64,000 nt of DNA. It comes from an uncultured Alphaproteobacteria bacterium. Lineage in GTDB: Bacteria > Pseudomonadota > Alphaproteobacteria > CAAHEQ01 > UBA3637. A model generated the notes under the pieces. The model did no database searches. It saw only the letters and a program-made list of their open reading frames with translations, and was not told the DNA's origin. Made by a program: the position numbers and the translations under genes. Each line of letters opens with the position of its first letter. Positions within the stretch are counted from its first letter, which is position 1. The DNA is taken from assembly GCA_944392785.1 (NCBI GenBank), contig CALXXW010000024.1, positions 9,744 through 73,743 of the forward strand. The letters run 5' to 3'. Shown here piece by piece: positions 1,597 through 33,978 of this stretch.

Positions 1597-4233
1597 TTAT
1601 ACCAGCTTACCACAGCAATGTTTATACTTCTTACCGGAGCCACAGGGGCAAGGGGCATTACGTGCAATTTTATCATCCGGTTCGGCTACAGACGTGCTGG
1701 GCGCATCAGCCGGGTAAGCTGCCGGTCTATTTTGAGTCGCGTTCACCGCTGGCGTTGCCTGTTGAATTTGGAATTCCATAAAACTGACGCGACGTGTTAT
1801 CCTCTCTCGCACACGCGTTAAAAAGTTTTCGAACAAATGGAAAGCTTCTTGCTTATAGGCATTCAACGGATTTTGTTGGCTATAGAAACGCAACCCGATA
1901 GAAGTTTGCAAAAAATCCAACATTTGCAAATGCTCTTTCCAACTTTGATCGATGACTTGTATCAGTATGCTTTTTTGCACGTCATTTTTAATGTTTTCCG
2001 GCATAATAGAAAACTTTTCTCGGATACTTTCTGCCGATTTTTCTTTCAAACGCTCCACCATTTTTTCTGGTGTTATCCCAGGTTCTCCTACCCATGAAGA
2101 AAAGGGAATATCTAAATTCAACAGCGCAAAAGTCTCACGTCTCAAGGCCTCGGCATCCCAATCTTCGGGAACCGATTTCATCGGTGCCAAGGTATAAACC
2201 AAATTTTCAAGGCAATCTACCCGCATATCCTCAATTGTATCCGCCACAGAGTCTGCCATCATCAATTCACGTCTTTGCTCATAAATGACTTTACGTTGAT
2301 CATTCATCACATCATCGTATTGCAACACATTTTTCCGTTGGTCAAAATGGAAAGCTTCAACCTTTTGTTGCGCTTTAGCGATGGCCTTGGTTATCCAAGG
2401 GCTAACAATGGCCTGTCCATTGGGCATCCCCATGGATTTTAAGATATTACTAATCCGCTCTGTCCCAAAAATACGCATTAAATTATCCTGAAGAGACACA
2501 AAAAATTTCGATAATCCCGGATCTCCTTGTCGACCCGAACGTCCGCGAAGCTGATTATCAATCCGTCGACTCTCGTGGCGTTCTGATCCCAGAACATACA
2601 ATCCTCCCGCAGCCAGAGCAACCTCTCGTCCCTTTTCGATTTCGGCCTTAATTTTAGCTGCCAATTCGGCTTCATCCGCATCAGGATTTTTGGCTTTTTC
2701 TTCCTTAAAACGCATTTCAAAATTACCGCCCAGCTGAATATCTGTACCGCGACCGGCCATATTCGTTGCAATGGTCACGGCGCCGGGCACACCGGCTTGC
2801 GCAACGATTTGAGCTTCTTGTTCATGATGGCGCGCATTCAATACATTGAAGGGTATATCGCTCTTCTTTTTCAACAGATTCGCCAACAACTCTGACTTCT
2901 CGATAGAGGTTGTTCCCACCAAAATCGGTTGATGCCGCTTATGTGCCAAAATAATTTCATCCACAATGGCATTGTATTTTTCCTCATCTGTACGATAGAC
3001 GACATCTTGCTCATCAATACGACCTGAAGGTTTGTTGGGTGGAATGGCAATAACATCCAAATGATATGTGCTGTCAAACTCATTCGCCTCCGTCATCGCC
3101 GTTCCGGTCATCCCTGCCAACTTGGGATACAACCGAAAATAATTCTGGAAAGTGATGGAAGCCAACGTTTGATTTTCCGGCTTAATCTCGACACCTTCTT
3201 TAGCCTCCAGAGCTTGATGCAAACCGTTGGAATAACGACGACCATTCATGATACGTCCCGTAAACTCGTCAATAATCATGACCTCTCCGTTTTTCACGAT
3301 ATAGGCGACATCTTTTTCAAACAGCGTATGAGCCCGTAAGGCTTGCTCCACATGGTGCACATAAGCCAAATTTTGGACATCATATAAAGAACCTTCAATC
3401 ATCCCGGCATCACGCAACATATTTTCGACGAATTCCGTTCCGGCCTCTGTTAATTGGACCGAGCGGTGTTTTTCGTCTTTTTCATAATGCTCGGGCTTTA
3501 AATGCCGCATCAGCTTATCGACGGCAATATATCTCTCGGAAGAATCTTCCGCCTGTCCGGAAATAATAAGAGGTGTTCGTGCTTCATCAATTAAAATAGA
3601 GTCAACCTCATCCACAATAGCATAGTTAAAAGGACGTTGAACCATATCAGCCAACGTAAACCGCATATTATCTCGCAAATAGTCAAACCCTAACTGATTA
3701 TTTGTGGCATAAGTAATGTCGGCCCGATACGCCGCGCGACGTTCATCATCATTTAATCCATCGACAACACACGCAACGGAAAGCCCCAAAAAGCGATAAA
3801 TTTTACCCATCCATTCACTATCACGTTTGGCCAAATAATCATTCACCGTCACCACATGAACACCCTTTCCCGACAAGGCATTTAAATAAGTCGGCAACGT
3901 AGCCACCAGCGTTTTTCCTTCACCCGTGCGCATTTCGGCAATTTTTGCATTGTGCAGAACAATACCGCCCAACAGTTGCACATCAAAAGGGCGTAAGCCT
4001 AATGTACGCCGAGCTCCCTCACGCACAACGGCAAAAGCCTCAACCAACAAGTCGTCCAATGTCTCACCGGCCTGATAGCGTTTTTTGAACTCTTCGGTTT
4101 TCGCCCGTAGTGCGGCATCGTCAAGTGCCGACATTTCTGGCTCAAGCGCATTAATAGCAGCGATTGTCTTATTAAATTTTCTTAAATAACGGTCATTAGC
4201 CGAGCGGAACAAATTTGTTAATTTCATTATCAT
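1597..4233 (-). CDS. secA: preprotein translocase ATPase SecA
   Basis: 878 aa, Walker A GEGKT, DEAD-like motifs, and the C-terminal zinc-binding tail [14 protein letters not shown]. Start ATG and TAA stop verified by hand. Confidence 0.97.
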
Positions 4234-4307: not shown

Positions 4308-5039
4308 TTATTTTTCTATCAAACGTGTCATATCGGCCAACGCTTCGGATTTGGGAGCATAAAAAAGCAGAGGCTGTTGGGCACGAATAGCGTCTTTAAC
4401 CAAGGTATCTCGACGAATAATCGCCTGCAAAGGCGGTGTTTTTTTTAAGAAACTTTCACAAGCCTTCATCAAAGTTGTATACGTGCGCTCTCCCTCTTTT
4501 TCGGAAGCTGCCGCATTCACCAGAATCGACAGCGGGATTTTGTTCTCCAACGTCTCAATTAACGCATAGGCTCCGGCCAAAGCGGTCGGTTCATCAGCCG
4601 TCAAGACAAAAGCTTCTGTCAAATGAGGCATCATAAGTTTCAAAAACCCATCCACACCGGCCGCAAAATCAATCATAACGATGTCATAATGCGTTGCTAA
4701 AATACTTAAATCATCGGCTAACATCTGTTGTTGTCCCTCTGTCAAAGCCCCCAAAACCAAACTTCCGGAACGACCGGCAATGACATCCAAAGGAAGATGC
4801 TCAACCGAACTGACCGCCTGTGTCATGGGACATTTACCAACTAAGATGTCCGCTATATCCACGCGAGGGACCATTCCCAGTTGAACGTCTACATTCGCTT
4901 GCCCGAAAGAACCGTCAAACAACAGCGTTTTATACCCCGCTGATGCAAAAAGCGTCGCTAAAGTGACCGCAACGGTTGTTCGACCGACGCCACCTTTCCC
5001 CGAAACAAGACCGATTATACGAGGGGAAACATGTGTCAT
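4308..5039 (-). CDS. flhG: MinD/ParA-family flagellar number regulator FlhG (FleN). The P-loop Lys is replaced by Arg.
   Basis: Deviant Walker A SGKGGVGRTT (canonical GKGGVGKT), a MinD-like fold, and a 4-nt overlap with the upstream flhF. Confidence 0.75.
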   Translation of the reverse strand: MTHVSPRIIGLVSGKGGVGRTTVAVTLATLFASAGYKTLLFDGSFGQANVDVQLGMVPRVDIADILVGKCPMTQAVSSVEHLPLDVIAGRSGSLVLGALTEGQQQMLADDLSILATHYDIVMIDFAAGVDGFLKLMMPHLTEAFVLTADEPTALAGAYALIETLENKIPLSILVNAAASEKEGERTYTTLMKACESFLKKTPPLQAIIRRDTLVKDAIRAQQPLLFYAPKSEALADMTRLIEK

Positions 5040-5986
5040 TTTAAGCCTCCTTTCAAAAGCAAGGGTTGTCGCATACGATCAGACAAGCTTTCGGCCGTTA
5101 GCGATATCAAAGGAACGGTTTCCATCGCATCTGTCATCAAAGCGGCCAGCGGTATCTGTAATCGATAAGCTATATTCAGCAAACAACCCAAACGATGGAA
5201 AGAATCCGCAAACGTGCCTATTAATACGGTTTGTCGAAACACCAAAAAAGGCTTGACCTGAGCCAAAGCTTCTGATGCATTAAGCCCCAACGAAACCGTC
5301 AACTCAGCCACAGCATCCGATAGATTTGCTGCCAGTTCATGCCAAGTTGTCAATGCTGTCTTTTCTTTTCCTAACTGTCCTGTTGTATCAACATAAATGC
5401 GCCTGTCCGGTGAAATACGCCGCACCAAAAACGATACCTCTGCCGCCGTTTCTGCCGTCAACACCGGCACTTTCAACAAACTGCAAAAAGCCGTCAAATG
5501 TTCCACCGAACCGGGGCGTTTATCTAGCGTAATAACCGTCGCCGGCTTCTTGGCCAATGTATCGGCAACAACCTGTTTTAACAAAGCTGTTGTCTTACCG
5601 CTGGCCGGAGGCCCCATCAAAAAACGGATACGTTCTAACGGTTGTGTAAAGGTCAACAACTGCTCCCAAGCGCTTGCCAGCACATCTTCTGTCGGAAGTT
5701 GAAATCCCTGTTGAAGTCGATGAAGAACATGGCGTGTCAAACTTTCCGATACGCCATGTCGTTTGAGTAAAAGTTGAATAACGGTATTTTGGTTCGGTGT
5801 TTCCTGTCGTCCCAATGCTTTTTTTAAATCCATATCCGATGTCGCATACGGTAAAGCCCCTATCAAACGAATGCGCCCATCGGGCTGACGTTGTGAAGAA
5901 ATAATCACAGCCGCGGCTCCCAACGAGTTGTGGATTAAATCCATCGCTTCAGGAATAGAGGCCGAAACAACCGTTTTCATTCGCAT
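5036..5986 (-). CDS. flhF: flagellar biosynthesis SRP-like GTPase FlhF. The start is set at Met50 of the tracked ORF so that it does not overlap the upstream gene.
   Basis: G1 LMGPPASGKTT, G3 VDTTGQ, and the position between fliF/G and flhG. An SD-like AAGGG lies upstream of the ATG at 5986..5984. Confidence 0.7.
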   Translation of the reverse strand: MRMKTVVSASIPEAMDLIHNSLGAAAVIISSQRQPDGRIRLIGALPYATSDMDLKKALGRQETPNQNTVIQLLLKRHGVSESLTRHVLHRLQQGFQLPTEDVLASAWEQLLTFTQPLERIRFLMGPPASGKTTALLKQVVADTLAKKPATVITLDKRPGSVEHLTAFCSLLKVPVLTAETAAEVSFLVRRISPDRRIYVDTTGQLGKEKTALTTWHELAANLSDAVAELTVSLGLNASEALAQVKPFLVFRQTVLIGTFADSFHRLGCLLNIAYRLQIPLAALMTDAMETVPLISLTAESLSDRMRQPLLLKGGLK

Positions 5987-5991
5987 ATTCA

Positions 5992-7929
5992 CTACCCTTT
6001 TGTCGCAAATGGCGATATTTTTTTGTGATAAATCAATTCTTGCGCCGTTTTGGTAATGGTTGTTTGTGCTCGTTCGATATCGCTCAGACGCGGAGCGCGC
6101 ATTCGTTCCGATTCGCGTATCAAACCGGCCCATACCTGAGGCGGCATATTACGCGCGAAGGCATCACGTATCGCCGTTGTTGCCCCCCGCAAAGCCAAAG
6201 CCGCCATATCACGATTCGTGTGCCGTAAAACCGTCTGAATAGCACTATCCGGCCAGCGCGCAATATCATCAAAACAAATCATGTGATACGCTATTCGCTC
6301 GGCCGATTGAGGTGAGTCACGGTACATATCCGCCATCAATTTTTCTTCACTGGTATGATCCATGGTCCGCAAAATGTCAGAGGCTTTTTCACTACCGGAT
6401 TTAAACCGCGCCTGCAGCATCAATGTATGCAGCTGCTGTGTTAAATCTTGTTCTAATTTCAATCGTTCGGCCGCCGAGATATGCTCTAACTGAGCCAACG
6501 CCTCTAATACCTTAGCGGCTTTTCCGTCAGACAGCAAACTAAGCACTTTGGCAGCCTTGTCATTTGTTAGGTGGTAAAGTATCAAAGCGGTCGTTTCCGG
6601 TTTTTTAGCTTCCAGATAACGCGCCAAAATGGATACATCCAATCGTTGTAATCTTTCCCAAATACTTTCATCACGTCCGCTACATGCCACTTCCATCATC
6701 ATGGCGGCACTTTTTTCCGGTGAGAATACATCTGACAAAACCTGTCGCACACGCGCCTCTGTTCCAAACAAAGCAACAGGCTCTTTAACGGAGCGAATAA
6801 ATGCGCTCAAGACAGAGCGAACACTCTCTGCCGGAACGGCACCCAGTTGGCTCATTAAACGTGACAACGTCCGCACTTCCATTTCGCTGAGACGATGGAA
6901 TATATCACGAATGGTCGTCTCCCCCAAAGCCAGCAATAAAATAGCGGCTTTTTGTTGAGCCGTATACTCTCCGTTGCGGTGGTTTTTGGGGCTGGGTTCA
7001 TATAACCAGTTTTTCAAAAGGGAAAGCGCGGTCTCCGGTTTTTCTCGAAAAAAGCGTTGGATAGCCAGAATATCAGAGGCACTCGGCGTCCGAGCCGACG
7101 AAAACCCGCCGCGTTCTGTGCCCTTCTCAAGCGGCTGAAGCAACGATGCCATCATCGGAAAAATAAAGTGAATCAGCAAAAAAAACGTCAACAACAAACA
7201 GGCGCCCAACAGCACAAAGCGCACCGCCATTTCAACAGACACGGTACGCCAAAAGGAAGGGGGTGCCGCAAAAGGCATATTCTGAATACTTAATGTATCT
7301 CCACGCTCCGGAGAAAAACCGATTAACGCCTCAACCAACTGACGATAGCGTTGCATTTCGGCCGCACCGCGGGGTTGATAAACATAATCTCCGGTTCCTG
7401 TCTTTTTTTGAATACCGTCAATCAAAATACTAACGGATAATCGTTTAACGGCTCCCGAGATGGAAGTCGTTTCTTCGGAGCGTGATGCAACATCATAAGA
7501 GGTTTCCTCTTCTTTTACAACCGACTCATCCACATAAGCCGGTTGTTCCTGCTGACGCATCACCTGACGAACAGCGACTTGCGTGTCGGCCAGTGGCTCT
7601 CGTTTTTGGCGTGTTTCCTGTTGCAAATCCAGCTCTACCTGCACGGTTGCTTCCACATGTCCCTTTCCCAGCGTTTTTTCCAACAAAGCGATGATTTGGG
7701 TCTGAAGGGTATCGGCATAGCGTTGTTGTAATAAAGCATGTTCGGAAAATGAACCGTTTTCCAAGTGCGATAAAGAGGCCGTTTCATTCCAAGAAGCACG
7801 GGGGGTCACATCTGATAAACGCACAAAAGCCGGCACAACATATCCGGCAACGCCCAACAGCGTGGCGGATAGTATCACGACAGCTAATAATCGTATCAAC
7901 TCAGAAGTTTTTATCACGCAATGATACAC
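5992..7929 (-). CDS. fliF: flagellar MS-ring/C-ring fusion protein: a shortened FliF (TM1, RBM3-like periplasmic part, TM2) fused to a full FliG-like domain
   Basis: TM at the N-terminus. A FliF ring-building motif region (ATVQVELDLQQETRQ ... KRLSVSILIDG ... FSPERGDTLSIQN) is followed by a second TM (VRFVLLGACLLLTFFLLIHFIF). Next come ~370 aa with FliG N/M/C-like armadillo segments (QKAAILLLALGETTIRDIFHRLSEMEVRTLSRLM; ALILYHLTNDKAAKVL; C-terminal torque-helix-like region). It is a single uninterrupted ORF with a GTG start directly after an in-frame stop. Confidence 0.7.
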   Translation of the reverse strand: MYHCVIKTSELIRLLAVVILSATLLGVAGYVVPAFVRLSDVTPRASWNETASLSHLENGSFSEHALLQQRYADTLQTQIIALLEKTLGKGHVEATVQVELDLQQETRQKREPLADTQVAVRQVMRQQEQPAYVDESVVKEEETSYDVASRSEETTSISGAVKRLSVSILIDGIQKKTGTGDYVYQPRGAAEMQRYRQLVEALIGFSPERGDTLSIQNMPFAAPPSFWRTVSVEMAVRFVLLGACLLLTFFLLIHFIFPMMASLLQPLEKGTERGGFSSARTPSASDILAIQRFFREKPETALSLLKNWLYEPSPKNHRNGEYTAQQKAAILLLALGETTIRDIFHRLSEMEVRTLSRLMSQLGAVPAESVRSVLSAFIRSVKEPVALFGTEARVRQVLSDVFSPEKSAAMMMEVACSGRDESIWERLQRLDVSILARYLEAKKPETTALILYHLTNDKAAKVLSLLSDGKAAKVLEALAQLEHISAAERLKLEQDLTQQLHTLMLQARFKSGSEKASDILRTMDHTSEEKLMADMYRDSPQSAERIAYHMICFDDIARWPDSAIQTVLRHTNRDMAALALRGATTAIRDAFARNMPPQVWAGLIRESERMRAPRLSDIERAQTTITKTAQELIYHKKISPFATKG

Positions 7930-8331: not shown

Positions 8332-9372
8332 ATGACAGATACACAAGATGACGACATCTTAGAGGGGGAAGTATATCAGAATACAGAGGTCCTTGTCACG
8401 CCAAAAGTACCTGAGACACAAAAAAACTTGCGTCTGGATAAATTTTTAGTCAGTTGCTATCCTCAGTTTTCTCGTAATCAAATGATCCGTCTCATCAAAG
8501 AAGGGGCTGTGTCCGTTGAAGACTGTCCGAGCCGAACTCTTGCTCCCGATGATGAGGTGAAAGTCGGAGAACATTTTAAGATAATCCCCCCCGAGGCCAC
8601 TCCGGCAGATCCCGTTCCGGAAAACATACCTCTGGATATTCTCTATGAGGATAAAGATCTACTGGTCGTCAATAAACCGGCCGGATTAGTTGTTCATCCC
8701 GGTGCCGGGAATACACACGGAACATTGGTTAATGCTCTGTTGGCTCATTGCGGAGATTCGTTATCCGGCATTGGCGGCGTCCGACGTCCCGGTATTGTGC
8801 ATCGCATTGACAAAGATACCAGCGGTATTTTAGTCGTTGCCAAAAATGACTGGGCGCATCGCCACTTGGCAGAACAATTTGCCGAACACACGATTGAACG
8901 CGTCTACCAGGCTTTTGTATGGGGTTTTGTTAAAAACACGACCGGTGTCATCAGTGGTTATATCGGTCGATCGCCGACAAATCGCCAAAAGATGGCTGTT
9001 GTCAAAACGAACGGGAAACATGCCACAACACATTATGAACGCCTGGAGGTCTTTGGAGGGGGCCTTGCTTCTCACATTCAATGTACGTTAGAGACGGGAC
9101 GCACACATCAAATTCGCGTACACATGGCATCTATCGGACATTCTTTAATCGGTGATACGGTTTACGGTATCGTCCCCTACCATGCTCCGGAGGCATTGAA
9201 ATTCTTTCCCAGACAGGCTTTACATGCCGGCTTTTTAGGGTTCATTCATCCGACGACGGAAGAACGTATGACTTTTGAAGTGCCGTTGCCTGAAGATATG
9301 CAGACTCTGTTGAATAACCTAAGATCGCTTTCGTGTGTCGATCAGACGGATCACTTTACGCATCAAGGTTGA
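8332..9372 (+). CDS. rluD: 23S rRNA pseudouridine synthase, RluA family (RluD/RluC-like) with N-terminal S4 domain
   Basis: S4-like LDKFLVSCYPQFSRNQMIRLIKEGAV, and the catalytic HRIDKDTSG motif within VNKPAGLVVHPGAG...GIVHRIDKDTSGILVVAK. AAGAGG SD before the ATG at 8332. Confidence 0.85.
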   Translation: MTDTQDDDILEGEVYQNTEVLVTPKVPETQKNLRLDKFLVSCYPQFSRNQMIRLIKEGAVSVEDCPSRTLAPDDEVKVGEHFKIIPPEATPADPVPENIPLDILYEDKDLLVVNKPAGLVVHPGAGNTHGTLVNALLAHCGDSLSGIGGVRRPGIVHRIDKDTSGILVVAKNDWAHRHLAEQFAEHTIERVYQAFVWGFVKNTTGVISGYIGRSPTNRQKMAVVKTNGKHATTHYERLEVFGGGLASHIQCTLETGRTHQIRVHMASIGHSLIGDTVYGIVPYHAPEALKFFPRQALHAGFLGFIHPTTEERMTFEVPLPEDMQTLLNNLRSLSCVDQTDHFTHQG

Positions 9373-10335
9373 AAAAGGATATTTCTGAAAATCTTCCGGT
9401 TTCACAAAAATACCCTCGGACAAAGGATTTGTTTGAACCGATAGCGTATAAATGTCCAGTGTTAACTTGACATGTGTGAACACGTGCACGATTTGTTTTC
9501 CCAAAGGAAAGTCTCGACTGAACAAAGGAGACTCTTCTTCATAGCCCCACGGGAACTCAAATAAACCGGATAACAGGCCCTTACCGGATCGTTGACGTAT
9601 TAAAAAGCCGCCTTCTTGATTCTGAACCAGCCATAGGGAACCCTTTTTCTCTTTTTTAGGTGGCTTAACAATCAGCGGAATCTGCTCAGCAATACCCTGT
9701 TGACAGGCCAAGCAATACTGGCGCCAAGGACATATCGGACAAGAAGGTTTTGAAGGAGTACAAACGGTTGCTCCCAAATCCATAATGGCCGAAGCATAAT
9801 CAGCGCCCTTATCCGGAGGGGTAAAGCGCACGGCTTTTTGATAAATTTCCTCCCGCTTAACGGCATGTGTTAAGCCATAAAGACGAGCCATAATACGGAT
9901 AACATTACCATCCACAACCGTTTCGGGCATATTAAACGCAAAGCAACAAATGCTGGAAGCTGTATAGGGTCCTATCCCCGGAAGCTTTAAAAGAGTCTCC
10001 CGATCGGCCGGAATTTTTCCTTGGTATTGTTGCACCAACACCTGAGCACACGCATGGATTTTTTTAGCCCGTGTATAATATCCCAATCCCTGCCAAGCCA
10101 ACAACACTTTTTCCAAATCAGCGGCAGCCAATGTTTCAATGGTTGGGAAAAGCTGCATCCAGCGAACAAAATAATCAACAACTGTTTTAACCGTTGTTTG
10201 TTGCAGCATAATTTCCGAGATCCAAACCGCATAGGGATCAAAATGTGCTCCCCCTTTGACACGCCAAGGCATATCCCGACCGTGATGATAAAACCACGTC
10301 AATAATTCAACGGCACACGTTCTTTCAGATACCAT
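9319..10335 (-). CDS. mutY: A/G-specific adenine DNA glycosylase MutY
   Basis: HhH-GPD core (LPGIGPYTASSI), the 4Fe-4S loop CTPSKPSCPICPWRQYC, and a C-terminal MutT-like domain. Its 3' end overlaps the rluD 3' end by 54 nt (convergent). Confidence 0.9.
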   Translation of the reverse strand: MVSERTCAVELLTWFYHHGRDMPWRVKGGAHFDPYAVWISEIMLQQTTVKTVVDYFVRWMQLFPTIETLAAADLEKVLLAWQGLGYYTRAKKIHACAQVLVQQYQGKIPADRETLLKLPGIGPYTASSICCFAFNMPETVVDGNVIRIMARLYGLTHAVKREEIYQKAVRFTPPDKGADYASAIMDLGATVCTPSKPSCPICPWRQYCLACQQGIAEQIPLIVKPPKKEKKGSLWLVQNQEGGFLIRQRSGKGLLSGLFEFPWGYEEESPLFSRDFPLGKQIVHVFTHVKLTLDIYTLSVQTNPLSEGIFVKPEDFQKYPFSTLMRKVIRLIDTRKRS

Positions 10336-10337
10336 GT

Positions 10338-12155
10338 TTATACGTCATCCGACTGTGATGGCAAGGCAGAAGCGGACGAAGCGGTCGAATCGTTTTTTTC
10401 CGTTTGTTGACCTTTGTTTGTTTTGACAAAGACTTGCAATTTTCGACCGGATTCATCAACATTCAAAAAGACATCTTGTCCGGGCTGTATTCGCTCCTGC
10501 ATAATCAAAAGAGACAGCGGATTTTCAACCTGCTCTTGGATCAACCGCTTTAAAGCCCGCACACCAAACTTAGAGGTAAAGACCTCTTCAACGAACCAGT
10601 CTTTTGCCTTATCATCCACAATGACGTGAAATCCCACGGCCGCCGCACGCTTGAGCAATTTATTCAAATGAATATCGACAATCAAGCGTAAATGCTCTTC
10701 CTTTAACTGATGGAAAGAGACAATATCATCCAAACGGTTCAGGAACTCGGGTCGGAAATAGTCTGTCAGCTTTTCAACGCGCTGATAGCTGGGTAAATTG
10801 GCCCCGACATTTGACGTTAAAATAATAATCGTATTGCGGAAATCAACCGTCACTCCTTTGGAATCCGTCAATCGTCCTTCATCCAATAACTGCAACATTA
10901 AGTTTAAAATATCCAGATGAGCCTTCTCAATTTCATCGAACAAAACAACCTGAAAAGGTTTTAATCGCACGGATTCGGTTAATAAGCCTCCCTGCTCGAA
11001 ACCGGGAGTCCCCGGTGGTGGTCCAATTAATCGTGTCACCGATGTCCGTTCCATATACTCAGACATATCCAGACGCAACAACGCCGTTTCATCGTTGAAC
11101 ATAAAGTCAGCCAAAGATTTGGCCAATTCTGTTTTACCGACACCCGTTGTTCCGATAAACAGAAAAGAACCTATCGGGCGATTAGGATCTTGTAGACCCG
11201 AACGCGCTCGTCGTAAGGCATCTGCTACGACTTTTACGGCATTATCCTGTCCGACAACCCGCTTACGCAGCTCATCTTCCGCCGTTGCCAAACGATGTTT
11301 ATCTTCGGCATCAACCTTCTCTACAGGAATGCCTGTCCAAGCCGATATTGTCCGATTACAAAAATCTGTTTCTAACACCGTTGCATCCGGTGACAGCTCT
11401 CCCTTGGCGATATCCATCATAATCAAGCTGGCAGAGTCATCCAGTAAATCCAAAGCTTTTTCAGGAAAAAAACGTTGTTTGATATAACGCGCCGTCAACT
11501 GACAGGCCACTTTTACCGTCTGAGCCGGAATGGTAATGCCGTAATGCTCCTCAAACTGTTTTTTGCGTGCCTCAACAATGTCAATGGCCTCGTCCAATGT
11601 CGGCTCCTCCAATAAAAGAGGTTGCAGACAAGCACTGACCGCCGTATCCTTTTCGATTGACCCGACATAATGTTGTGTATCCGTTTCAATCATGCAATTT
11701 AATTGATCGCTGACAAGAGCCAATTTTAAAAATTTCGCCGGCTCTTTATTTTCAGGAGACGTTTCCGTTTGAACCAACAAGCTGACATCTTTTAAATACA
11801 GCACTTTTTGATGTTCGCTGGCAATCACGATTTGCATGACGCGCTTCATCAATTCAGCATATTCTTCTTCACTTTTTGTCTCCAGCATCACGCGCCCGAC
11901 ATCAATACCGACCACCTCTTTTTGACGCAAGTAATCCGGTGCACTTTCGGAAGCCATAAAAGCTATCAGACCTTCCATCAAGGCGGTTTTACCAATCCCG
12001 GCGGCTCCGACAACAATGGGATTGTTTCGTGTACTGCGCAATAAAATATGAATTAACCGCTCCAACTCATCTTGGCGACCAATCAGCTCCGTCAATTTTC
12101 CCGAGCGCGCCAAGAGTGTATAGTTAATCAGATATTTTTGCAGATCATCAGCCAT
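10338..12155 (-). CDS. Hsp100/ClpB-like AAA+ ATPase lacking the N-domain and the coiled-coil M-domain. D1 Walker B degenerate, D2 intact.
   Basis: D1 Walker A GAAGIGKTALMEGL, but Walker B reads VLYLKD (canonical ILFIDE). D2 has FLFIGTTGVGKTE, VVLFDEIEKAH, and ClpB-like FRPEFLNRLDDIVSFHQL. No IGF/IGL ClpP-binding loop. Only 605 aa. Confidence 0.75.
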   Translation of the reverse strand: MADDLQKYLINYTLLARSGKLTELIGRQDELERLIHILLRSTRNNPIVVGAAGIGKTALMEGLIAFMASESAPDYLRQKEVVGIDVGRVMLETKSEEEYAELMKRVMQIVIASEHQKVLYLKDVSLLVQTETSPENKEPAKFLKLALVSDQLNCMIETDTQHYVGSIEKDTAVSACLQPLLLEEPTLDEAIDIVEARKKQFEEHYGITIPAQTVKVACQLTARYIKQRFFPEKALDLLDDSASLIMMDIAKGELSPDATVLETDFCNRTISAWTGIPVEKVDAEDKHRLATAEDELRKRVVGQDNAVKVVADALRRARSGLQDPNRPIGSFLFIGTTGVGKTELAKSLADFMFNDETALLRLDMSEYMERTSVTRLIGPPPGTPGFEQGGLLTESVRLKPFQVVLFDEIEKAHLDILNLMLQLLDEGRLTDSKGVTVDFRNTIIILTSNVGANLPSYQRVEKLTDYFRPEFLNRLDDIVSFHQLKEEHLRLIVDIHLNKLLKRAAAVGFHVIVDDKAKDWFVEEVFTSKFGVRALKRLIQEQVENPLSLLIMQERIQPGQDVFLNVDESGRKLQVFVKTNKGQQTEKNDSTASSASALPSQSDDV

Positions 12156-13250
12156 TTACTCATCCTCTTCTACTGCACCGAAGGTAAAGCTTTGACGATG
12201 ACGCAATTCTTTTCCATCAATTTCAGCTTCAAAATAATCCTGATCTTGGATATCTTTATCCTCCAGCACAATATAGGCATTATAGGCCGATCCTTGCATA
12301 GACGCCTGCATATAAGCTTTCTGCGGATCACCCCAAATCAATTTTTCCGAATCATCCGGCAATCCATACGTTTCAAACATTAAATTCCAAAAAGCCTCTT
12401 TGCGCGCTTGTTTTTTAGCCAAGTTTCGCCGCGTAAAATTCAACGAATTATCTCCCTCATTTTCATAGAAAATTTTATAAGAAACATTATCTGTTGCCGG
12501 TGTTGAAAACAGCACCTGCATTTTTTCACCCGCCTCCGGCTTAGCCAGAGTCATCGAAGAAATATATTGCATACCGTCAGCTTGAGCCGCTTCTAAAATA
12601 CACCGTTTAACAGCATCCGGCACCACCACACCTGCCGTTCGGCAACGATTCTCATAATAAGAGGTTCGAAACAAAGGAATTCCCTGCTCTATACGCGTAA
12701 TTTTATACCCGTTTTCAAGTGCTGCCTCTTGAATCTCATCCGGCGTTAATCCCAGTGACATGCCCGAAATATCAAACATAAAGACATCATGCAACTTCCC
12801 GAACAACTCCTCGGCAACCTGAGCGGACATTTGCTTTGTTCGACGAGCGGCTTCAGCCTCTGCGGCACGAATGCGCTCTTCTTCAGCTCGTTTTGTTTTT
12901 TCCAACTCGGCTTTTAATTGTTCCGACAACTGTTCATCATTGGCATTTTCCTTAGTCAAGGCAATCGGACGAGAGGGCTGAGCTTTCTCTGTTGAAAGGC
13001 TCTCTTTTTCAGCAACGGCCGTTGGCGAAGTCGATGCTGTCTGCGCATTTTTCTCCACTTTCCCCAAATTAATTTCGACACGTGGCAGCGGCTCAGGTGT
13101 CACGACCAACTTTTCCAAAGGCTCGGCATTTCGACCGATATTCGGGACACTGGGTTCAAAATCATCAAAAAGCGGTATTTCCACTTCCTGAGCAAAGACC
13201 ACCGTCGACAGCAGCATGACTGACAAAGTAAAAACAATATTTTTCATCAA
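12156..13250 (-). CDS. secreted protein with a central coiled-coil (signal peptide, ~340 aa mature), function unknown. Stop is directly abutting the ClpB-like gene start.
   Basis: Signal peptide MMKNIVFTLSVMLLSTVVFAQE, and a charged coiled-coil stretch EQLKAELEKTKRAEEERIRAAEAEAARR. No recognisable catalytic motif. Confidence 0.5.
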   Translation of the reverse strand: MMKNIVFTLSVMLLSTVVFAQEVEIPLFDDFEPSVPNIGRNAEPLEKLVVTPEPLPRVEINLGKVEKNAQTASTSPTAVAEKESLSTEKAQPSRPIALTKENANDEQLSEQLKAELEKTKRAEEERIRAAEAEAARRTKQMSAQVAEELFGKLHDVFMFDISGMSLGLTPDEIQEAALENGYKITRIEQGIPLFRTSYYENRCRTAGVVVPDAVKRCILEAAQADGMQYISSMTLAKPEAGEKMQVLFSTPATDNVSYKIFYENEGDNSLNFTRRNLAKKQARKEAFWNLMFETYGLPDDSEKLIWGDPQKAYMQASMQGSAYNAYIVLEDKDIQDQDYFEAEIDGKELRHRQSFTFGAVEEDE

Positions 13251-13353
13251 CGACCCCTTTTTTAGCTTGACCTTTTCATCCGAAAAAGATACAAATATGA
13301 TATCATGTTTATAGTTTTAAACAAATTATTTAATAAAAGCAAGGAAAAAAACG

Positions 13354-13944
13354 ATGCTTCATTTTAAATCGGTCGTTGTTTGTTGTGGAAGCCGATCGGG
13401 GCGCAATCCTGCTTTTATACAGGCGGCTCAAAATTTCGGGGAATTGTTGGCTCAAAATCACATACACTTAATTTACGGCGCCGGCGGAACGGGTATGATG
13501 GGCGCCGTTGCAACGGGATGTGAACGAAACGGTGGCTATGTGACGGGAGCAACCATTAAACAGCTCTATGATATTGAACGTCCGGATCTGGCTGTCCATA
13601 TCGACCGAATGGAGGTTTGGAATCGCCTTTATGAACGCAAAGTTTCCATGACAAAACAAGCGGATGCCATTGTTGTTCTTCCGGGAGGATACGGAACATT
13701 GGATGAGCTGTTCGAACTTCTGACACTCAAGCAAATCGGCATCAATAACGTTCCGATCATCTTGGTTAATATGGACGGTTTTTTCAATACGCTGCATCAG
13801 TTTTTATTTGAGTTAGTCGGAGAGGGGTATATCCGGCCGGATCAATTACGTTTGCTGACGGTTGTCAAAAGCATTGAAGAAGTCATTCCGGAAATTGAAC
13901 GCCAGATTGTCTCTACCCTTGTGCAGGAGCCGGAGCCGGCATGA
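13354..13944 (+). CDS. LOG-family protein (cytokinin riboside 5'-monophosphate phosphoribohydrolase-like, TIGR00730)
   Basis: VVCCGSRSG...IYGAGGTGMMGAVA...VVLPGGYGTLDELFE, which are the PGGxGTxxE LOG signature motifs. Confidence 0.85.
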   Translation: MLHFKSVVVCCGSRSGRNPAFIQAAQNFGELLAQNHIHLIYGAGGTGMMGAVATGCERNGGYVTGATIKQLYDIERPDLAVHIDRMEVWNRLYERKVSMTKQADAIVVLPGGYGTLDELFELLTLKQIGINNVPIILVNMDGFFNTLHQFLFELVGEGYIRPDQLRLLTVVKSIEEVIPEIERQIVSTLVQEPEPA

Positions 13945-14711
13945 GACGATATCATTTTGTTTTTTTGATAGGGATTTTGTTTTGCTTGGGAGCCTGCGCC
14001 ACCAAACCAACGGACCCTCTTGCTCTACAGCAGTATGAGGCGAACAATGATCCGCTAGAACCTTTAAACCGTCAGATTTTTGCCTTTAATATGGCGGCGG
14101 ATGAATATGTTTTGACGCCGATAGCCAAAGGTTATCGTTTTGTCATGCCCGAACCCTTACGCCAAGGTGTTTTGAATTTTTTCGCCAATTTAGAGCAACC
14201 GGTTTACTTTGCCAATGCCACTTTACAGGCTGAAGGAAAAGATATGTCAGCGGCATTCCAGCGCTTTATGGTCAATACATTTTGGGGCATGTTTGGCTTG
14301 TTCGATGTGGCCAGCGACATGGAGATTCATAAACCGGACAATGATTTTGGTCAAACATTGGCCGTTTGGGGATGGCACAGTCCCGGACCGTTTTTGGTTT
14401 TACCCTTTCTGGGACCATCTAATCCGCGAGATGCTATTGGTCTTGGGGTTGATTCTTTTGTCTCTCCTTTGGGGTATGCTCTGGATGAAAAATTCTGGTT
14501 AGTTTATGCTGTGACAGGTGTTGAAATGTTTGCCAAATATGAAGATGCCATGGACTTTTTGCATAACATGATGAAAACGTCTACGGATACATACGCCATG
14601 ATGCGCACCATGTCGCAACAAAATCGCCAAAAGAAAATTGATGAGAGTTTGGGAATAAAAGACGAAAAACCGTCATATGATTTTGATTTCCCGGAAGATG
14701 AAGACTTTTAA
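13941..14711 (+). CDS. mlaA: outer-membrane lipoprotein MlaA/VacJ (phospholipid transport)
   Basis: Lipobox LGAC, DPLEPLNRQIFAFN, and the WGWHSPGPFLVLPFLGPSNPRD conserved VacJ core. 4-nt overlap with the upstream LOG gene. Confidence 0.85.
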   Translation: MRRYHFVFLIGILFCLGACATKPTDPLALQQYEANNDPLEPLNRQIFAFNMAADEYVLTPIAKGYRFVMPEPLRQGVLNFFANLEQPVYFANATLQAEGKDMSAAFQRFMVNTFWGMFGLFDVASDMEIHKPDNDFGQTLAVWGWHSPGPFLVLPFLGPSNPRDAIGLGVDSFVSPLGYALDEKFWLVYAVTGVEMFAKYEDAMDFLHNMMKTSTDTYAMMRTMSQQNRQKKIDESLGIKDEKPSYDFDFPEDEDF

Positions 14712-14734
14712 TAGAAATAAACAAGGAGAAAACA

Positions 14735-15337
14735 ATGAAAAAGCTATTGACATTCATCATAAGTATTTTAATATCCACAACTGTGTATGCTACCGTTCCG
14801 GCTATTACGTTTGTGAATGATTTAACGGATGACATCATTCAAAACGTTCTTGAATCCAACAAGTCTCAAGATGAAAAGCTGATCACGTTCAGAACGGCTT
14901 TTGAGAAAGCTCTGGATCTTAAAAGCATCGGGCAATTCGTATTGGGTGTTTATTGGCGGCAGGCTTCCGAAACCGACCGAGAGGCTTTTTTAAAGGCTTT
15001 TATCGACTACACGACAAAAACATGGGCCGACCGCTTTAACATGTATAATGGACAAAAAATTATTTTCCTGGGAACACGGAATGCCGAACGGAATCAGTTA
15101 TATGTTGACAGCCAGATTCAGAATAATCCTCCTGTAGAAGTTATCTGGCGACTACGCCAAAAGAACGGGGACTTCCGAATCATTGACATCATTGTTGAAG
15201 GGGTGAGTATGGCTATGAGCTATCGCAATGAATATAGTGCCTTTTTGCAAGCACATGCCGGGAAAGTGTCCGCTTTAACAAAAGAGCTGGAAGAAAAATC
15301 AGCCTCTTTTCAATTCAGTGACACCACGCAGAACTAA
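14735..15337 (+). CDS. mlaC: periplasmic phospholipid-binding protein MlaC (Ttg2D/toluene-tolerance family)
   Basis: Signal peptide, and the MlaC family pattern DLKSIGQFVLGVYWRQASETDREAFLKAFIDYTTKTW. Lies adjacent to mlaA. Confidence 0.75.
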   Translation: MKKLLTFIISILISTTVYATVPAITFVNDLTDDIIQNVLESNKSQDEKLITFRTAFEKALDLKSIGQFVLGVYWRQASETDREAFLKAFIDYTTKTWADRFNMYNGQKIIFLGTRNAERNQLYVDSQIQNNPPVEVIWRLRQKNGDFRIIDIIVEGVSMAMSYRNEYSAFLQAHAGKVSALTKELEEKSASFQFSDTTQN

Positions 15338-27461: not shown

Positions 27462-30400
27462 TTAAAACCATCCGGTTGAACGATTACAACTTCCCGTTAA
27501 CCAGTTATAGTATCGACCCTTACAAGCCTGACAAGATTCATACGAGGTTTGTGTATCTCTTTTCTCCGTGCATGCCACACACTTGTTGGCGCTGGTTGAA
27601 AAGAACTGCCCTGTCGGACAAACACATGTTTTCCCGTTGCCGAATCCTTGCCCAGAGGGGCAAAGACGACACCTCTTATTATACCAGTAGCGCTGAGGAC
27701 ATTTTTGACACTCTTCCCATGTTGTATTGGACGCCGCTGATGATAACGAGCAAAGAGCACACATATTCGTTCCATAGAAAAAGCGATTATCACAAGACGA
27801 ACATTCGTCCTCGGTGGCTCTGATAGTTCCGTTAACCGAGCAGGATTGACATTGATTGGAAGTATTCAAAATTTCCCCAGCCGCACATGTACATCCCAAC
27901 CCATCTGAGGTAGCATTTGTGCCGTTGGGACACAGGTAGGACCGAGCATCCGATGGTTTCCAATAACGATTAGGACACTGCCGACTTTCATCCTGTGCAA
28001 CGGCTATAGCCGATGTGTAGTCACAAGAAATACAGGCTCCATCCGAAGAGCGCCACAGACGCTCACCCTGACCACAAGACATACATTCGGCTTGCGTTGT
28101 CGCATGACTTGCTGTTTTACTTGTACAACTCAAGCATGTATTCGCCGCATAGGAAAAATACTGGCCCTCCGGACAAACACATCCCAGCCCATCCGCTGTT
28201 GCCTTTGTTCCGCTGGGACAAATATAGCTATACCCCTTATCCGATCGCCAATAACGATTGGAGCAACGCCGACTTTCTTCATATGAGGCCTTAATGGCTA
28301 CGGAACGGCTACACAGCGAACACGTATCATCGTCGGCTAAAAAGCGTATATTATCTCCACAACCATGGCAAGCGGCCTCAGTGGTTTTAGGCGTATTTGA
28401 TGCGGCACACAAATACGATTTACCATCCTCTGCAAAATAGCGTTTCCCTATGCCGCAGCTGGCACTTGCCTGCTCGGATGAGACAACGGCCGTTGTGATA
28501 TCACAATCAACACATGTTTTATTGCTGGCATTAAAGAAAGTCTCTCCGGCAGAACAGGAACACGAAAGCCCATCTTCTGCCACCAAAGAACCATTCGGGC
28601 ATAGGATGCACCGATCCGTCTGCCAATAACGATTCTGACATGTTTGACAGGCCTCTAACGTCGCATAGCGATTGACCGTATCCGCACAAGAATAGCACTT
28701 ATTATCTTGCGCCGAGAAAAACGCATCTTGCGCGCATCCGCTACAAACAAGGCCGTCTTCACTGGTTGTATTGCCGGTGCATACCAGGCACATATTGTCC
28801 TTTTCTCGCCAATATCGACCTTCACAGACATGACAAGCCCCAAAAGTGGCTTGTTTCGATGCCGTATTTTCACAAGGATAACACTTGCCGTCAGCATAGG
28901 AAAAATACTCGCCCGCCGGACAAACGCATCCCAACCCATCCGCCGTTGCCTTTGTTCCGGTGGGGCACATATAACTATACCCATTATCCGATCGCCAATA
29001 GCGATTTTGACACCGTTGCGAATTTTCCAAAGATGTCGCAAATCTTCCCGTGTATTGACACGCATAACACTGATTCTTGGACGACAGCGTCCGCACATTC
29101 GTCCCACAAGAGAAACAAGCCTCGGCTTCTGTGACAGGATAAGAGGTTGTTTGGGTACATAGATAGGAATAAGAGTTGCTAGCCATATAGCGCACGCCCG
29201 TACCGCAACTGGCACTGGCATCGGCATAAGTCAAAATCGCTGTCGTAGTATCACAAGCCGCACAAACTGTCGGCTTTGCTTGATTAAAGAATGTCTCACC
29301 TATCGAGCAAGAACAAAACAATCCATCTTCAGAGCCTATTCCACCCTCACCACACAGCATACAAGAATTATTTTTCCAATATCGATTTCCGCAGGCTTGG
29401 CACTCAGCCAAGGTTGTTGTCCGAGCCCGAGTCTCTGAGCAGGGATAGCATTTATTGTCGGCATAAGAAAACATATACCCTTCGTCACACTCACAGGCCT
29501 CTCCGGATTCCGAAGCCTTCATTCCGGTCGGGCAAAGGCGACATTGTCCTGTTTTGCTTTCCCAATACCGATTGTCGCACATTTGACACTCTTGAAGCGT
29601 TGAGACGACTTTCTTCGTATTCGTGCATTTGAAGCACGCATTATTTGCCTGAGCGGTAAACCATCCCGGACATGAACTGCAACTGAGATTCTCTGCCAGA
29701 ATGGTACTTTCCTTCAGTTCACTACACGAATAGCAACTTCCATTTTTATCCATTAAATGATTTGTATCTTGGCAAACACATCCCGTTCCCTCCTCATTGG
29801 GACGAGCCGAATAAGCACACGAGTAGCATGTTCCATCCGTATCCATCCAACCTTTTTCCAAATCGCAGACACAAGATTGCGTTTTTTCATCCCATATGGC
29901 TCCGATTGTTTGACACCGATGACAATTCGGGTACTCACCGAAGAAGTAGATCTGAGTGTTGCACTCACATGTTTGTGTTTCCGCATTATAACGCCCGGCA
30001 CGATATTCGGCCGAATAAGCAGGAGAGGAAACGGTATACACAGCCTCAGGACACATACTATCACAGGTTTTTGTGTCATAATTCCAAGCTTGATCTGCAC
30101 CGGCACATAACTGACATGAACCATCGGCTTTGGTATAATAGCGAGCGGCTTCATTACAGACGCATTGCCCATCTTTTTCCGTAAATCCCTTCGATTCATC
30201 ACATCCGGGCAAGCGACACCAGTTATTGATCATTTGAAGTCCCTCAGGACAAGCACATTCACCATTACTTTGTATCACCTGTCCCCGATCACAGAACCAA
30301 TCGCAACGCCCGTCTTGTTTTTCCTTTCCAAAGGGACATACACAATTTTCATCGGCATCAATCAAGCCACAGATATTTTGTCCCAATGCTTTTTCCGGAT

Positions 30401-32267: not shown

Positions 32268-32277
32268 TTTCTGTCTC

Positions 32278-33978
32278 CTATTCGTTTTCGGGTGGTATAT
32301 ACATCGGCCAATTGCCTTGAACAACATCATCTAATGACTGCAAAGAGGCCCCCATTAAAGACCTGTAAATCCAATAATTGACGATGATACGCTCAACAAA
32401 ACTGCGTGTTTCCTTAGAAGGAATACTTTCCAAGAACAATAACGGATCATCGTTATAGTTCATTTTCTTTTTCCATTTCATCAAATTTCCCGGCCCGGCA
32501 TTATAGGCAACCGCCGTAAAAATCAAATTATTCTGCACCGCCTCCGATGCCATCAAACGCAACAAATAATTTTGCCCCAAAGCCAGGTTATAAGCCGGTT
32601 CTTTCAGCTTTTGTCGCTTCCAGGGCATTTGTAAAAGCGCCGCCTGCTCCCGTCCCGTCTGAGGCATAATCTGCATCAACCCCAATGCCCCCATGGCACT
32701 TTCGGCACGTTTATTAAAACAAGACTCCTGCCGCACAAAGGCAAAGACCAGCGCTTTGTCCACCTTCCATCCATCCTGAGGCGTCCAATTAGGAGCCGGA
32801 TACCGTGCCTCATCCCCATTTAATGTTCCCGCAATTCCCAATAAATCATCCGCAAAACCATTTTTTTGCGAAATCATCAACAAAATACCTTGAGCTTCTG
32901 TATCTGCCTCCAGATACAACTTAGCCAACTCTTTTTGGGCCCACTCATCTGCACCGATTTGTCGCAAGGCATAAAAGCGTGTCAAAGCCGGATGAGAAAA
33001 ATCTCCGATAACATCATCACTGGGTGTTGCCGGTTCATCCCAAACATGAGACAAATCTTGTCCCAACATGCGCATCGCCAGCAAGCCATAGAACGTCCGA
33101 GGGAAAGAGGCTGCCTGCTCCAAATAAGCCCCCACCGCCTGATATTTTCCCTGTTTTAAAAGAGAACGAGCCGCCCAAACCGCTCCGGCGTTTTTAAGCA
33201 ACGGGTAAGCCGTTTTTGCCTTTGCCACCTTTTCAAAGTAATCCCCTGCCTGCGGATAATTTTCCTGTCGCCATGAGACCAATCCGGCTGTCCACCAGGC
33301 TAACGGGATTTCCATTCCAGAATCCAAAACCGGTCTTAACTGTTCCATCGCCAATAAGTCGGCATCATCTATGAAATATGAAAAAGCCAAGGCTGTACGC
33401 GCCAATAATAAATCTCTTTTTGACAACAGTTTTTTGGTCGTTTTCTCTTCGATAACACGTTTAGCATTTAACGTTTTGCCTGCCAAAATATAACGTTCGA
33501 TTTGACGCATAATCCGTTGCGCCTTTTGACGATTAGCCGCATTTAGATAGGAAAAAGATAATCCGCGAATCAAATCAATCGGCTCGATACGTTGAACACC
33601 CAAACATGCTCCTGAATTTCCGCCGAAAATACCGCGCGGACGCGGCGGCAATTTAGCTTTTTTTTGAACACCCAAGGCATAGACATCACTGGCAACGGCC
33701 AGATCACTGTATTTATTCAACCAATTGACGATCTCTGTCCCTTTTGTGCGGTATCCTTTTGAAAAATAACGATCGTATAAAACATATCCCATCAACAGTT
33801 TATCTTTTATTGTCCCCTCGACTTTTTTAGCCGTCTTAAAATCATTTGCTTGATGCGCCTTTAGGATCCGCTGATAGGCGGCGACATCCCTATCGCTCAA
33901 AATAGCCGGCCCCGCCACCGTCGGCAAGGCAAAGCCCAAAAGCAAAAGGATATGACAAATAAAATGAATGACGCGCAA
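32278..33978 (-). CDS. slt: soluble lytic murein transglycosylase (Slt70-like; superhelical N-domain + family 1 LT domain)
   Basis: Signal peptide. The catalytic ES motif in VRQESCFNKRAESAMGALGLMQIMPQTG, and AYNAGPGN. Its TAG stop at 32278..32280 overlaps the SD of the giant prepilin-like gene, 10 nt before that gene's ATG. Confidence 0.85.
   Translation of the reverse strand: MRVIHFICHILLLLGFALPTVAGPAILSDRDVAAYQRILKAHQANDFKTAKKVEGTIKDKLLMGYVLYDRYFSKGYRTKGTEIVNWLNKYSDLAVASDVYALGVQKKAKLPPRPRGIFGGNSGACLGVQRIEPIDLIRGLSFSYLNAANRQKAQRIMRQIERYILAGKTLNAKRVIEEKTTKKLLSKRDLLLARTALAFSYFIDDADLLAMEQLRPVLDSGMEIPLAWWTAGLVSWRQENYPQAGDYFEKVAKAKTAYPLLKNAGAVWAARSLLKQGKYQAVGAYLEQAASFPRTFYGLLAMRMLGQDLSHVWDEPATPSDDVIGDFSHPALTRFYALRQIGADEWAQKELAKLYLEADTEAQGILLMISQKNGFADDLLGIAGTLNGDEARYPAPNWTPQDGWKVDKALVFAFVRQESCFNKRAESAMGALGLMQIMPQTGREQAALLQMPWKRQKLKEPAYNLALGQNYLLRLMASEAVQNNLIFTAVAYNAGPGNLMKWKKKMNYNDDPLLFLESIPSKETRSFVERIIVNYWIYRSLMGASLQSLDDVVQGNWPMYIPPENE

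Follow-up and report, generated by a model that had tools for sequence, protein, structure and literature searches.

Does an ATPase gene that begins directly after the stop codon of a gene for an exported protein mark a dedicated two-protein machine, or an ATPase that works without its neighbor? The question is raised by a 64,000-nucleotide (nt) stretch of DNA from an uncultured alphaproteobacterium (GenBank assembly GCA_944392785.1, contig CALXXW010000024.1, positions 9,744 to 73,743 of the forward strand), here called the window. In the list of open reading frames (ORFs), the minus strand encodes a 605-amino-acid (aa) ATPase that by Pfam is a minimal Hsp100 core (positions 10338 to 12155), which we refer to as mini-Clp. 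Immediately upstream lies the gene for a clade-restricted, 363-aa exported protein of unassigned function (12156 to 13247, minus strand), which we refer to as the partner. An earlier reading made from the letters alone (the sequence-only reading) had taken the two for a functional pair. Our analysis favors another answer, which we hold with moderate confidence: mini-Clp is a stand-alone cytoplasmic Hsp100-core ATPase, its first AAA+ module (D1) acting as a nonhydrolyzing assembly ring and its second (D2) as the sole motor, and it is not functionally tied to the partner.

Domain architecture and motif states of mini-Clp

Pfam matches on mini-Clp comprised AAA_lid_9 (aa 187 to 250), AAA_2 (aa 326 to 478), and ClpB_D2-small (aa 484 to 562), and over D1 there were just weak generic P-loop matches. 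With a D1 large domain and AAA_lid_9 followed by AAA_2 and D2-small, the protein has the components of the class I Hsp100/Clp superfamily. Its AlphaFold model (mean predicted local distance difference test [pLDDT] score of 80.5, about 90 in D1) contains two AAA+ modules and no additional domain and superimposes on the cores of ClpC, ClpB, and ClpA with E values of 1e-46 to 1e-53. D1 (aa 5 to 250; 11406 to 12143, minus strand, as are all features of these two genes given below) is by model and sequence identity a folded AAA+ module that has kept its P-loop and lost its catalytic residues. D2 with its small domain (aa 280 to 570; 10446 to 11318) is catalytically complete by its conserved motifs. 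The low-complexity C-terminal tail (aa 580 to 605; 10341 to 10418) is predicted to be disordered (pLDDT of about 32); across the family this tail is unconserved, ranges from 16 to 244 aa, and accounts for all of the extra length. No signal peptide, membrane segment, or N-terminal extension was found in the mini-Clp protein.

The sequence-only reading had claimed that mini-Clp lacks the N-terminal domain (N-domain) and the middle domain (M-domain) of ClpB, and it had proposed profile searches and a full-length ClpB alignment as the check. Residues 5 to 263 of mini-Clp pair with residues 153 to 408 of Thermus thermophilus ClpB (1qvr), and residues 260 to 571 pair with ClpB residues 521 to 844, leaving ClpB residues 409 to 520 unmatched. 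The N-domain and the M-domain of about 110 to 120 aa are therefore absent from mini-Clp. Residues 5 to 573 align with residues 169 to 742 of ClpA in one unbroken block. At the position of the ClpB M-domain, the ClpB alignment places a short D1-D2 linker of 29 aa (aa 251 to 279; 11319 to 11405); this linker measures 28 to 36 aa in the family, compared with mostly 80 to 160 aa in canonical representatives, where it is short just in the ClpA-like ones. Pfam detected Clp_N (PF02861) neither in mini-Clp nor in any of its 124 homologs, all of which start within 1 to 15 residues of query position 5. Since every homolog starts alike and none carries PF02861, the domain loss is neither chance nor a mis-called deletion, and both absences stand. 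The same holds for the claimed lack of a ClpP-binding loop. Comparison of family and canonical motifs places a 22-aa segment, NVGANLPSYQRVEKLTDYFRPE (10746 to 10811), at the position of the ClpP loop of ClpA and ClpC, and no IGF/IGL docking motif is present in it; among canonical clusters, that loop is confined to the ClpA and ClpC types.

Motif states were read from the ClpB alignment and checked in 124 family members and in the 145 nearest canonical Hsp100 clusters. The D1 Walker A motif, GAAGIGKT (11985 to 12008), is retained; the family preserves its pattern GxxGxGK[TS], and not even the members with 48 to 52% identity depart from G50, G53, G55, and K56. The other D1 motifs are degenerate. 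ClpB ILFIDE aligns with VLYLKD in mini-Clp, so that the Walker B motif reads LYLKD (11787 to 11801) instead of LFIDE, as the sequence-only reading had noticed; the family state is hhh[K/N/D/T]D in the 124 members, and the canonical LFIDE state occurs in about 125 of the 145 canonical clusters. The D1 pore-loop region, LETKSEEEYAELM (11847 to 11885), aligns with ClpB AGAKYRGEFEERL, and the tyrosine of K-Y-R is replaced by serine (K-S-E); this tyrosine is present in none of the family members, and [KR][YF]R is found in most canonical representatives. At the D1 arginine-finger position (11622 to 11636), mini-Clp has SACLQ where ClpB has ERRFQ, and RRF is present in 130/145 canonical clusters versus 0/124 family members. 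A ClpB has two hydrolysis-competent ATP sites; with LYLKD and SACLQ in D1, mini-Clp retains only the D2 site intact. D1 is very probably hydrolysis-dead, as had been suggested: along with the Walker B acidic pair, it has lost its arginine fingers and its pore tyrosine. The missing arginine fingers had been overlooked, as had the absence of pore tyrosines from both D1 and D2.

D2 had been credited with ClpB-type hallmarks, and this holds for its catalytic motifs and fails for its pore loop. Walker A (GTTGVGKT), Walker B (VVLFDE), sensor-1 (TSN), the arginine finger (NRLDD), and sensor-2 (GVRALKR) are kept in 122 to 124 of the 124 members; the canonical references are GxxGxGKT, hhhhDE, TSN, NR(L/I)D, and G(A/V)R. 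The pore loop, GPPPGTPGFEQGG (10986 to 11024; canonical, GAPPGYVGYEEGG), has exchanged GYVG for G(S/T)PG. The family pattern is GPPPG(S/T)PGFExGG, with GTPG in mini-Clp itself; GYVG occurs in 0/124 members, and GY[VI]G occurs in 132/145 of the canonical clusters. G378, P379, P381, G382, P384, G385, and E387 of the loop are invariant or nearly so. The near-invariance of the replacement loop points to a selected new state and not to decay.

Comparison of the two modules showed that D1 has diverged beyond D2. Identity between the family and canonical Hsp100s is 32% in D1 and 47% in D2, compared with 54% and 51%, respectively, among the canonical proteins themselves. Within the core clade the values are 62% for D1 and 89% for D2, and for the divergent members they are 38 to 40% and 63%. 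This pattern fits a D1 that is without catalysis and yet structurally needed. An unrelated Hsp100 of 622 aa (P0372) likewise has neither N-domain nor M-domain and keeps KYR, LFIDE, RRF, and GYVG, with a longer D2 loop; therefore, domain loss alone does not entail the motif changes of the mini-Clp family.

These features suggest how mini-Clp may work. D1, with its P-loop and lid retained, would bind nucleotide; having lost sensor-1, both arginine fingers, and the acidic pair of Walker B, it would be unable to hydrolyze what it binds. It may instead form the static assembly ring of a predicted hexamer. The D2 ring of NSF is an AAA+ ring that binds ATP without hydrolyzing it, and in NSF, as proposed for mini-Clp, one of two stacked rings has a P-loop without catalytic residues and probably serves only in oligomerization. 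NSF, however, belongs to another AAA+ clade, and its inactive ring is the second one. D2, in which every catalytic motif is kept, would be the sole motor. With no IGF/IGL loop, mini-Clp would be unable to dock ClpP; with no M-domain, it would be neither recruited nor regulated by DnaK; and it would be unable to use N-domain adaptors. Substrate engagement has probably been altered, toward a low grip or a specialized client, and not simply lost, because both channel tyrosines are replaced and the loop PPPG(S/T)PGFE is itself invariant. The gene is chromosomal, strongly constrained, and of housekeeping type, and its product is predicted to be cytoplasmic.

The mini-Clp family among Hsp100 machines

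A protein identical to mini-Clp (P0001) is present on four public contigs. The best 120 database matches have 73 to 82% identity and lengths of 587 to 794 aa, and the few that are named read [quoted passage not shown] Clustering of the library at 50% identity leaves only five clusters for the family (P0016 and P0241 to P0244), scoring 617 to 1021 bits, followed by canonical Hsp100s at 482 bits or less. By these sequence comparisons, the mini-Clp family is a small, discrete Hsp100 subfamily of uncultured Alphaproteobacteria. The carriers are probably gut associated, since sample labels and the names of metagenome-assembled genomes suggest animal-gut metagenomes. A scan of a genome collection with the family alignment, keyed on the universal Hsp100 motifs RLDMSEYM and LFDEIEKA, returned only canonical ClpC- and ClpB-type genes of other phyla with 34 to 42% identity and recovered no family members.

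When mini-Clp was ranked against NCBIfam models, ClpB came first, followed by ClpA, ClpK, ClpV, and ClpG, and all scores fell far below the curated cut-offs. For ClpB, the scores were 588.6 against a cut-off of 1232.1 (TIGR03346) and 500.3 against 1417 (PRK10865), in agreement with the earlier statement that this is not the canonical clpB; for ClpA (TIGR02639), the score was 507.2 against 993.15. The ClpV/TssH score was 438 against 885, and the adjoining genes (mutY, mlaA, mlaC, LOG, and rluD-like genes) include none of a type VI secretion system. Among stand-alone disaggregases, which were compared by model score, ClpG gave 434 and ClpK gave 448 against a cut-off of 1900; mini-Clp has no N-terminal aggregate-binding domain, and no ClpL model scored it.

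The closest likeness is to ClpB and Hsp104. The ClpB model is the best hidden Markov model match, T. thermophilus ClpB is the best sequence match in the PDB, and mini-Clp shares the two-tier core (AAA_lid_9, AAA_2, and ClpB_D2-small), a complete set of D2 catalytic motifs, and the lack of a ClpP loop. It differs from them in having no N-domain and no M-domain, and hence no DnaK docking, and in the loss of the D1 Walker B motif, arginine fingers, and pore tyrosine, along with the change from GYVG to G(S/T)PG in D2. To ClpA, and especially to an N-domain-deleted ClpA, it is similar in that no M-domain separates D1 from D2; unlike ClpA, it lacks the N-domain, the ClpS-binding region, the IGL loop for ClpP, and the pore tyrosines, and its D1 is catalytically degenerate. 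The D2 of mini-Clp also matches two defense-associated ClpB-like proteins of PADLOC, Dodola DolB and PDC-M37B (E = 1e-31 to 1e-35). Those matches cover D2 only, however, and mini-Clp lies in a housekeeping context and not in a defense island, with no Dodola partner gene.

Could mini-Clp be a derived ClpB orthologue, the reduced descendant of a canonical ClpB that the lineage has lost, still engaged in bulk quality control and disaggregation without DnaK? Several observations agree with this: ClpB is the best NCBIfam model (588 bits versus 507 for ClpA) and supplies the top PDB sequence match, the WTGIPV linker motif is of the ClpB/ClpC type, conservation is very high, as for a core chaperone, the chromosomal context is one of housekeeping genes, and the ten largest ORFs of the window include no second Clp gene. 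One of the family loci (L003) has a DUF4167 gene (3016 to 3465) 2.5 kb upstream of mini-Clp, which recalls a canonical alphaproteobacterial locus (L101, 2022 to 2915) in which prfA-prmC-DUF4167 precede a full-length clpB, with an opposite-strand MOSC gene between. This proximity gives a weak hint that mini-Clp occupies the ancestral clpB position; it was seen in that family locus only. (Homologs of a canonical alphaproteobacterial ClpB, P0247, look marine, and none of their contigs coincided in length with a contig bearing mini-Clp.) Descent from ClpB is not established by sequence, since the family is about equally distant from A-, B-, and C-type Hsp100s (31 to 35% identity in D1 and 46 to 52% in D2). 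The proposed function also lacks its known means. ClpB depends on its M-domain for DnaK-dependent disaggregation and on its pore tyrosines for threading, and mini-Clp has neither; the known stand-alone disaggregases ClpG and ClpL rely on N-terminal aggregate-binding domains, and mini-Clp has none. We regard this origin and function as unlikely, although it is the best surviving of the alternatives.

A second alternative turns on the pore. Since neither pore tyrosine survives and the replacement loop is invariant, mini-Clp might be a nonthreading regulatory or scaffold ring that is switched by ATP and binds a specific client without translocating it, comparable to the plant ClpB-like proteins of the SMAX1/D53 type. 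D1 weakly matches the model of the SMAX1 nucleotide-binding domain, and the variable, disordered C-terminal tails could be docking regions. Yet the tail is unconserved and no candidate client was identified, and the strong constraint on the D2 Walker B glutamate, sensor-1, arginine finger, and sensor-2 points to real ATP turnover rather than a pure switch. Such a ring seems improbable to us, distinctly more so than a derived ClpB.

The exported neighbor and its gene block

The partner was listed as a 364-aa ORF (12156 to 13250, minus strand) beginning with TTG at 13250. The ATG at 13247 is the more likely start; it gives 363 aa, the same as in the public copy (P0121). All 134 partner homologs are unnamed, and the protein has no match in Pfam, NCBIfam, PADLOC, or PHROGs. 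It begins with a Sec-type signal peptide, MKNIVFTLSVMLLSTVVFA (13191 to 13247), that is conserved in 52 aligned homologs, with cleavage expected, from the sequence pattern, before QE. An N-terminal proline-rich motif follows (13062 to 13178), written in short as IPLFDD..PNxGRxAxPLxxLVxTPxPLPxV and in its fuller form as IPLFDD...PNLGRxAxPLDxLVLTPxPLPxV, in which G38, R39, P51, and P55 are invariant in the 52 homologs. A linker of variable length and composition, missing in some homologs, leads to a conserved globular C-domain of about 200 aa (aa 150 to 350; 12198 to 12800; pLDDT of >90) with the invariant cysteines C202 and C216. The best PDB match of the partner model in Foldseek had an E value no better than 0.012. 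From its signal peptide and invariant cysteine pair, the partner is probably periplasmic. The sequence-only reading had called it a secreted coiled-coil protein, a label that does not fit the family. The signal peptide is conserved; what was taken for a coiled coil is one charged helix (aa 104 to 139 in the AlphaFold model), which lies in the variable or missing linker and is hence no family trait.

The start of mini-Clp does directly abut the upstream stop, as had been claimed. The junction TAAATG (12153 to 12158) reads GAG TAA ATG GCT, and a Shine-Dalgarno-like GAGGA sits 7 nt before the mini-Clp ATG. The next gene on the same strand, mutY (A/G-specific adenine glycosylase; 9319 to 10335, with HhH-GPD, HHH, and NUDIX_4 domains in the orthologous loci), begins 2 nt past the mini-Clp stop (TAA AC ATG), so that partner, mini-Clp, and mutY form an apparent three-gene operon. 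Divergent from it lie LOG, mlaA, and mlaC (13354 to 15337). A scan of 9200 to 13450 for promoters and terminators gave match counts within chance, and inspection by eye of the intergenic region from 13251 to 13353 revealed no recognizable heat-shock-type signal. In nearly all core-clade loci with enough upstream DNA, the partner is divergent from the outer-membrane lipid-asymmetry genes (LOG-)mlaA-mlaC; a role of the periplasmic partner linked to Mla is conceivable.

The least probable of the three alternatives, only slightly behind the nonthreading ring, is that the two genes form a dedicated module, in which the ATPase acts on the exported partner, for instance to maintain the partner precursor in an unfolded state for Sec export, or in which both serve secretion or envelope assembly. 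Besides the abutting codons and the Shine-Dalgarno-like sequence, what speaks for such a module is that the partner adjoins mini-Clp in all 16 core-clade loci (the window, L001 to L005, L090 to L097, L099, and L100) even though partner identity across loci is only 29 to 49%; 10 of these (L090 to L097, L099, and L100) are metagenome loci found with a partner profile that reach far enough downstream. In addition, 21 partner/Clp cluster pairs have an identical longest-contig size across the two homolog lists. The same 16 loci, however, share one entire five-gene block, mlaC-mlaA-(LOG) divergent from partner-clp-mutY, and because the whole block is shared, the adjacency is inseparable from inherited synteny. 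mini-Clp is joined as tightly to mutY, with the 2-nt gap in the window and overlaps of 8 to 32 nt in L003 to L005. The sequence-only reading had proposed to check the co-occurrence of the two genes across genomes. They are not neighbors throughout the ATPase family: they adjoin in the 16 core-clade loci, and in L006, L008, and L009 the partner is not adjacent.

Those three loci belong to the four divergent family members (L006 to L009; 48 to 52% identity), which sit among other housekeeping genes, namely, ddl and a solute-binding protein gene, dapF and ATP synthase genes, and DUF386 and RNase J genes. In the flanking DNA available for these four members, neither tblastn nor the hidden Markov model detected any homolog of the partner; L007 is uninformative upstream, its DNA ending 88 nt before the mini-Clp homolog. 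A shared function would also lack an obvious meeting place, as predicted from sequence, with the partner in the periplasm and an ATPase that has no signal peptide or membrane segment, and the missing pore tyrosines are unexpected in an unfoldase. The rates of divergence differ as well. Identity across loci is 70 to 79% for mini-Clp, 50 to 70% for MutY, 45 to 60% for MlaA, 52 to 59% for LOG, and lowest for the partner. The ATPase is thus the slowest-evolving gene of the block and the partner the fastest, unlike what is expected of a coevolving pair. The proposed functional pair is therefore not borne out.

The reading of mini-Clp as a stand-alone ATPase includes the view, held with the same moderate confidence, that the stop/start abutment reflects cotranscription in a compact syntenic block and not a dedicated two-protein machine. 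In the window, eight same-strand junctions have a gap of 2 nt or less or a 4-nt overlap, and such tight junctions also join functionally unrelated genes (LOG/mlaA and clp/mutY). Several points weigh against the stand-alone reading. Elsewhere in the window (34911 to 37163, plus strand), an LD-carboxypeptidase (Peptidase_S66) gene starts immediately after the end of a Mur-ligase-family gene (junction at 36278/36279), and these two genes probably form a peptidoglycan-recycling pair, so that abutment is probably informative at times. The perfect core-clade adjacency, with gaps of 0 to 15 nt wherever both gene ends were fully aligned, is compatible with translational coupling and a clade-specific functional link. 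With both pore tyrosines lost, mini-Clp could be unable to translocate polypeptides, in which case "remodeling ATPase" would be an overstatement. Finally, the literature searched yielded no account of a family like this one.

Genomic setting and significance

The sequence-only reading had also offered a phage-derived or secretion module; we rejected the phage origin, since phage records contain generic ClpB only, with 43% identity or less and nothing matching the partner, and the secretion idea is not supported either, the context being chromosomal and of housekeeping type. The window is ordinary chromosome, with genes for SecA, RNase R, AdhE, MurJ, phosphoglycerate mutase, MutY, MlaA and MlaC, and flagellar proteins, and no phage, defense, or secretion context was found around mini-Clp. 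In PADLOC and PHROGs, mini-Clp gave only generic AAA_2 or Clp matches.

Two other ORFs of the window deserve mention in their own right. A 645-aa ORF (5992 to 7929, minus strand), called with a GTG start and overlapping the next ORF (5036 to 6133), contains YscJ_FliF_C (aa 83 to 220) and a complete FliG_N/M/C set (aa 323 to 638); the combination resembles a natural fusion of FliF and FliG, with the N-terminal ring domain of FliF missing from the ORF. A 1622-aa ORF (27462 to 32330, minus strand) has no Pfam match at E values of 1e-4 or less.

Hsp100 machines serve as the model case for how pore-loop tyrosines thread a substrate. A broader proposal, which we put forward tentatively and consider less probable than the stand-alone reading, is that the family is a new Hsp100 subfamily in which a dead ring and a tyrosine-less, proline-rich pore work by a noncanonical mechanism, and that it has possibly replaced ClpB as the only class I Hsp100 in its clade. 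The two-protein system, which would have been the more exciting part, holds up poorly, and mini-Clp will appeal chiefly to those who work on AAA+ proteins and chaperones. It represents a naturally occurring family, kept under strong purifying selection, in which D2 is fully competent, as judged by its motifs, both pore tyrosines are replaced, D1 appears disabled, and all interfaces to adaptors or other machines (N-domain, M-domain, and ClpP loop) have been shed. It may therefore serve as a ready-made minimal system for asking what a bare D2 motor can do and whether an aromatic grip is required. If the carrier genomes prove to be without a canonical ClpB, the family would show how protein quality control has been rewired in an uncultured gut lineage.

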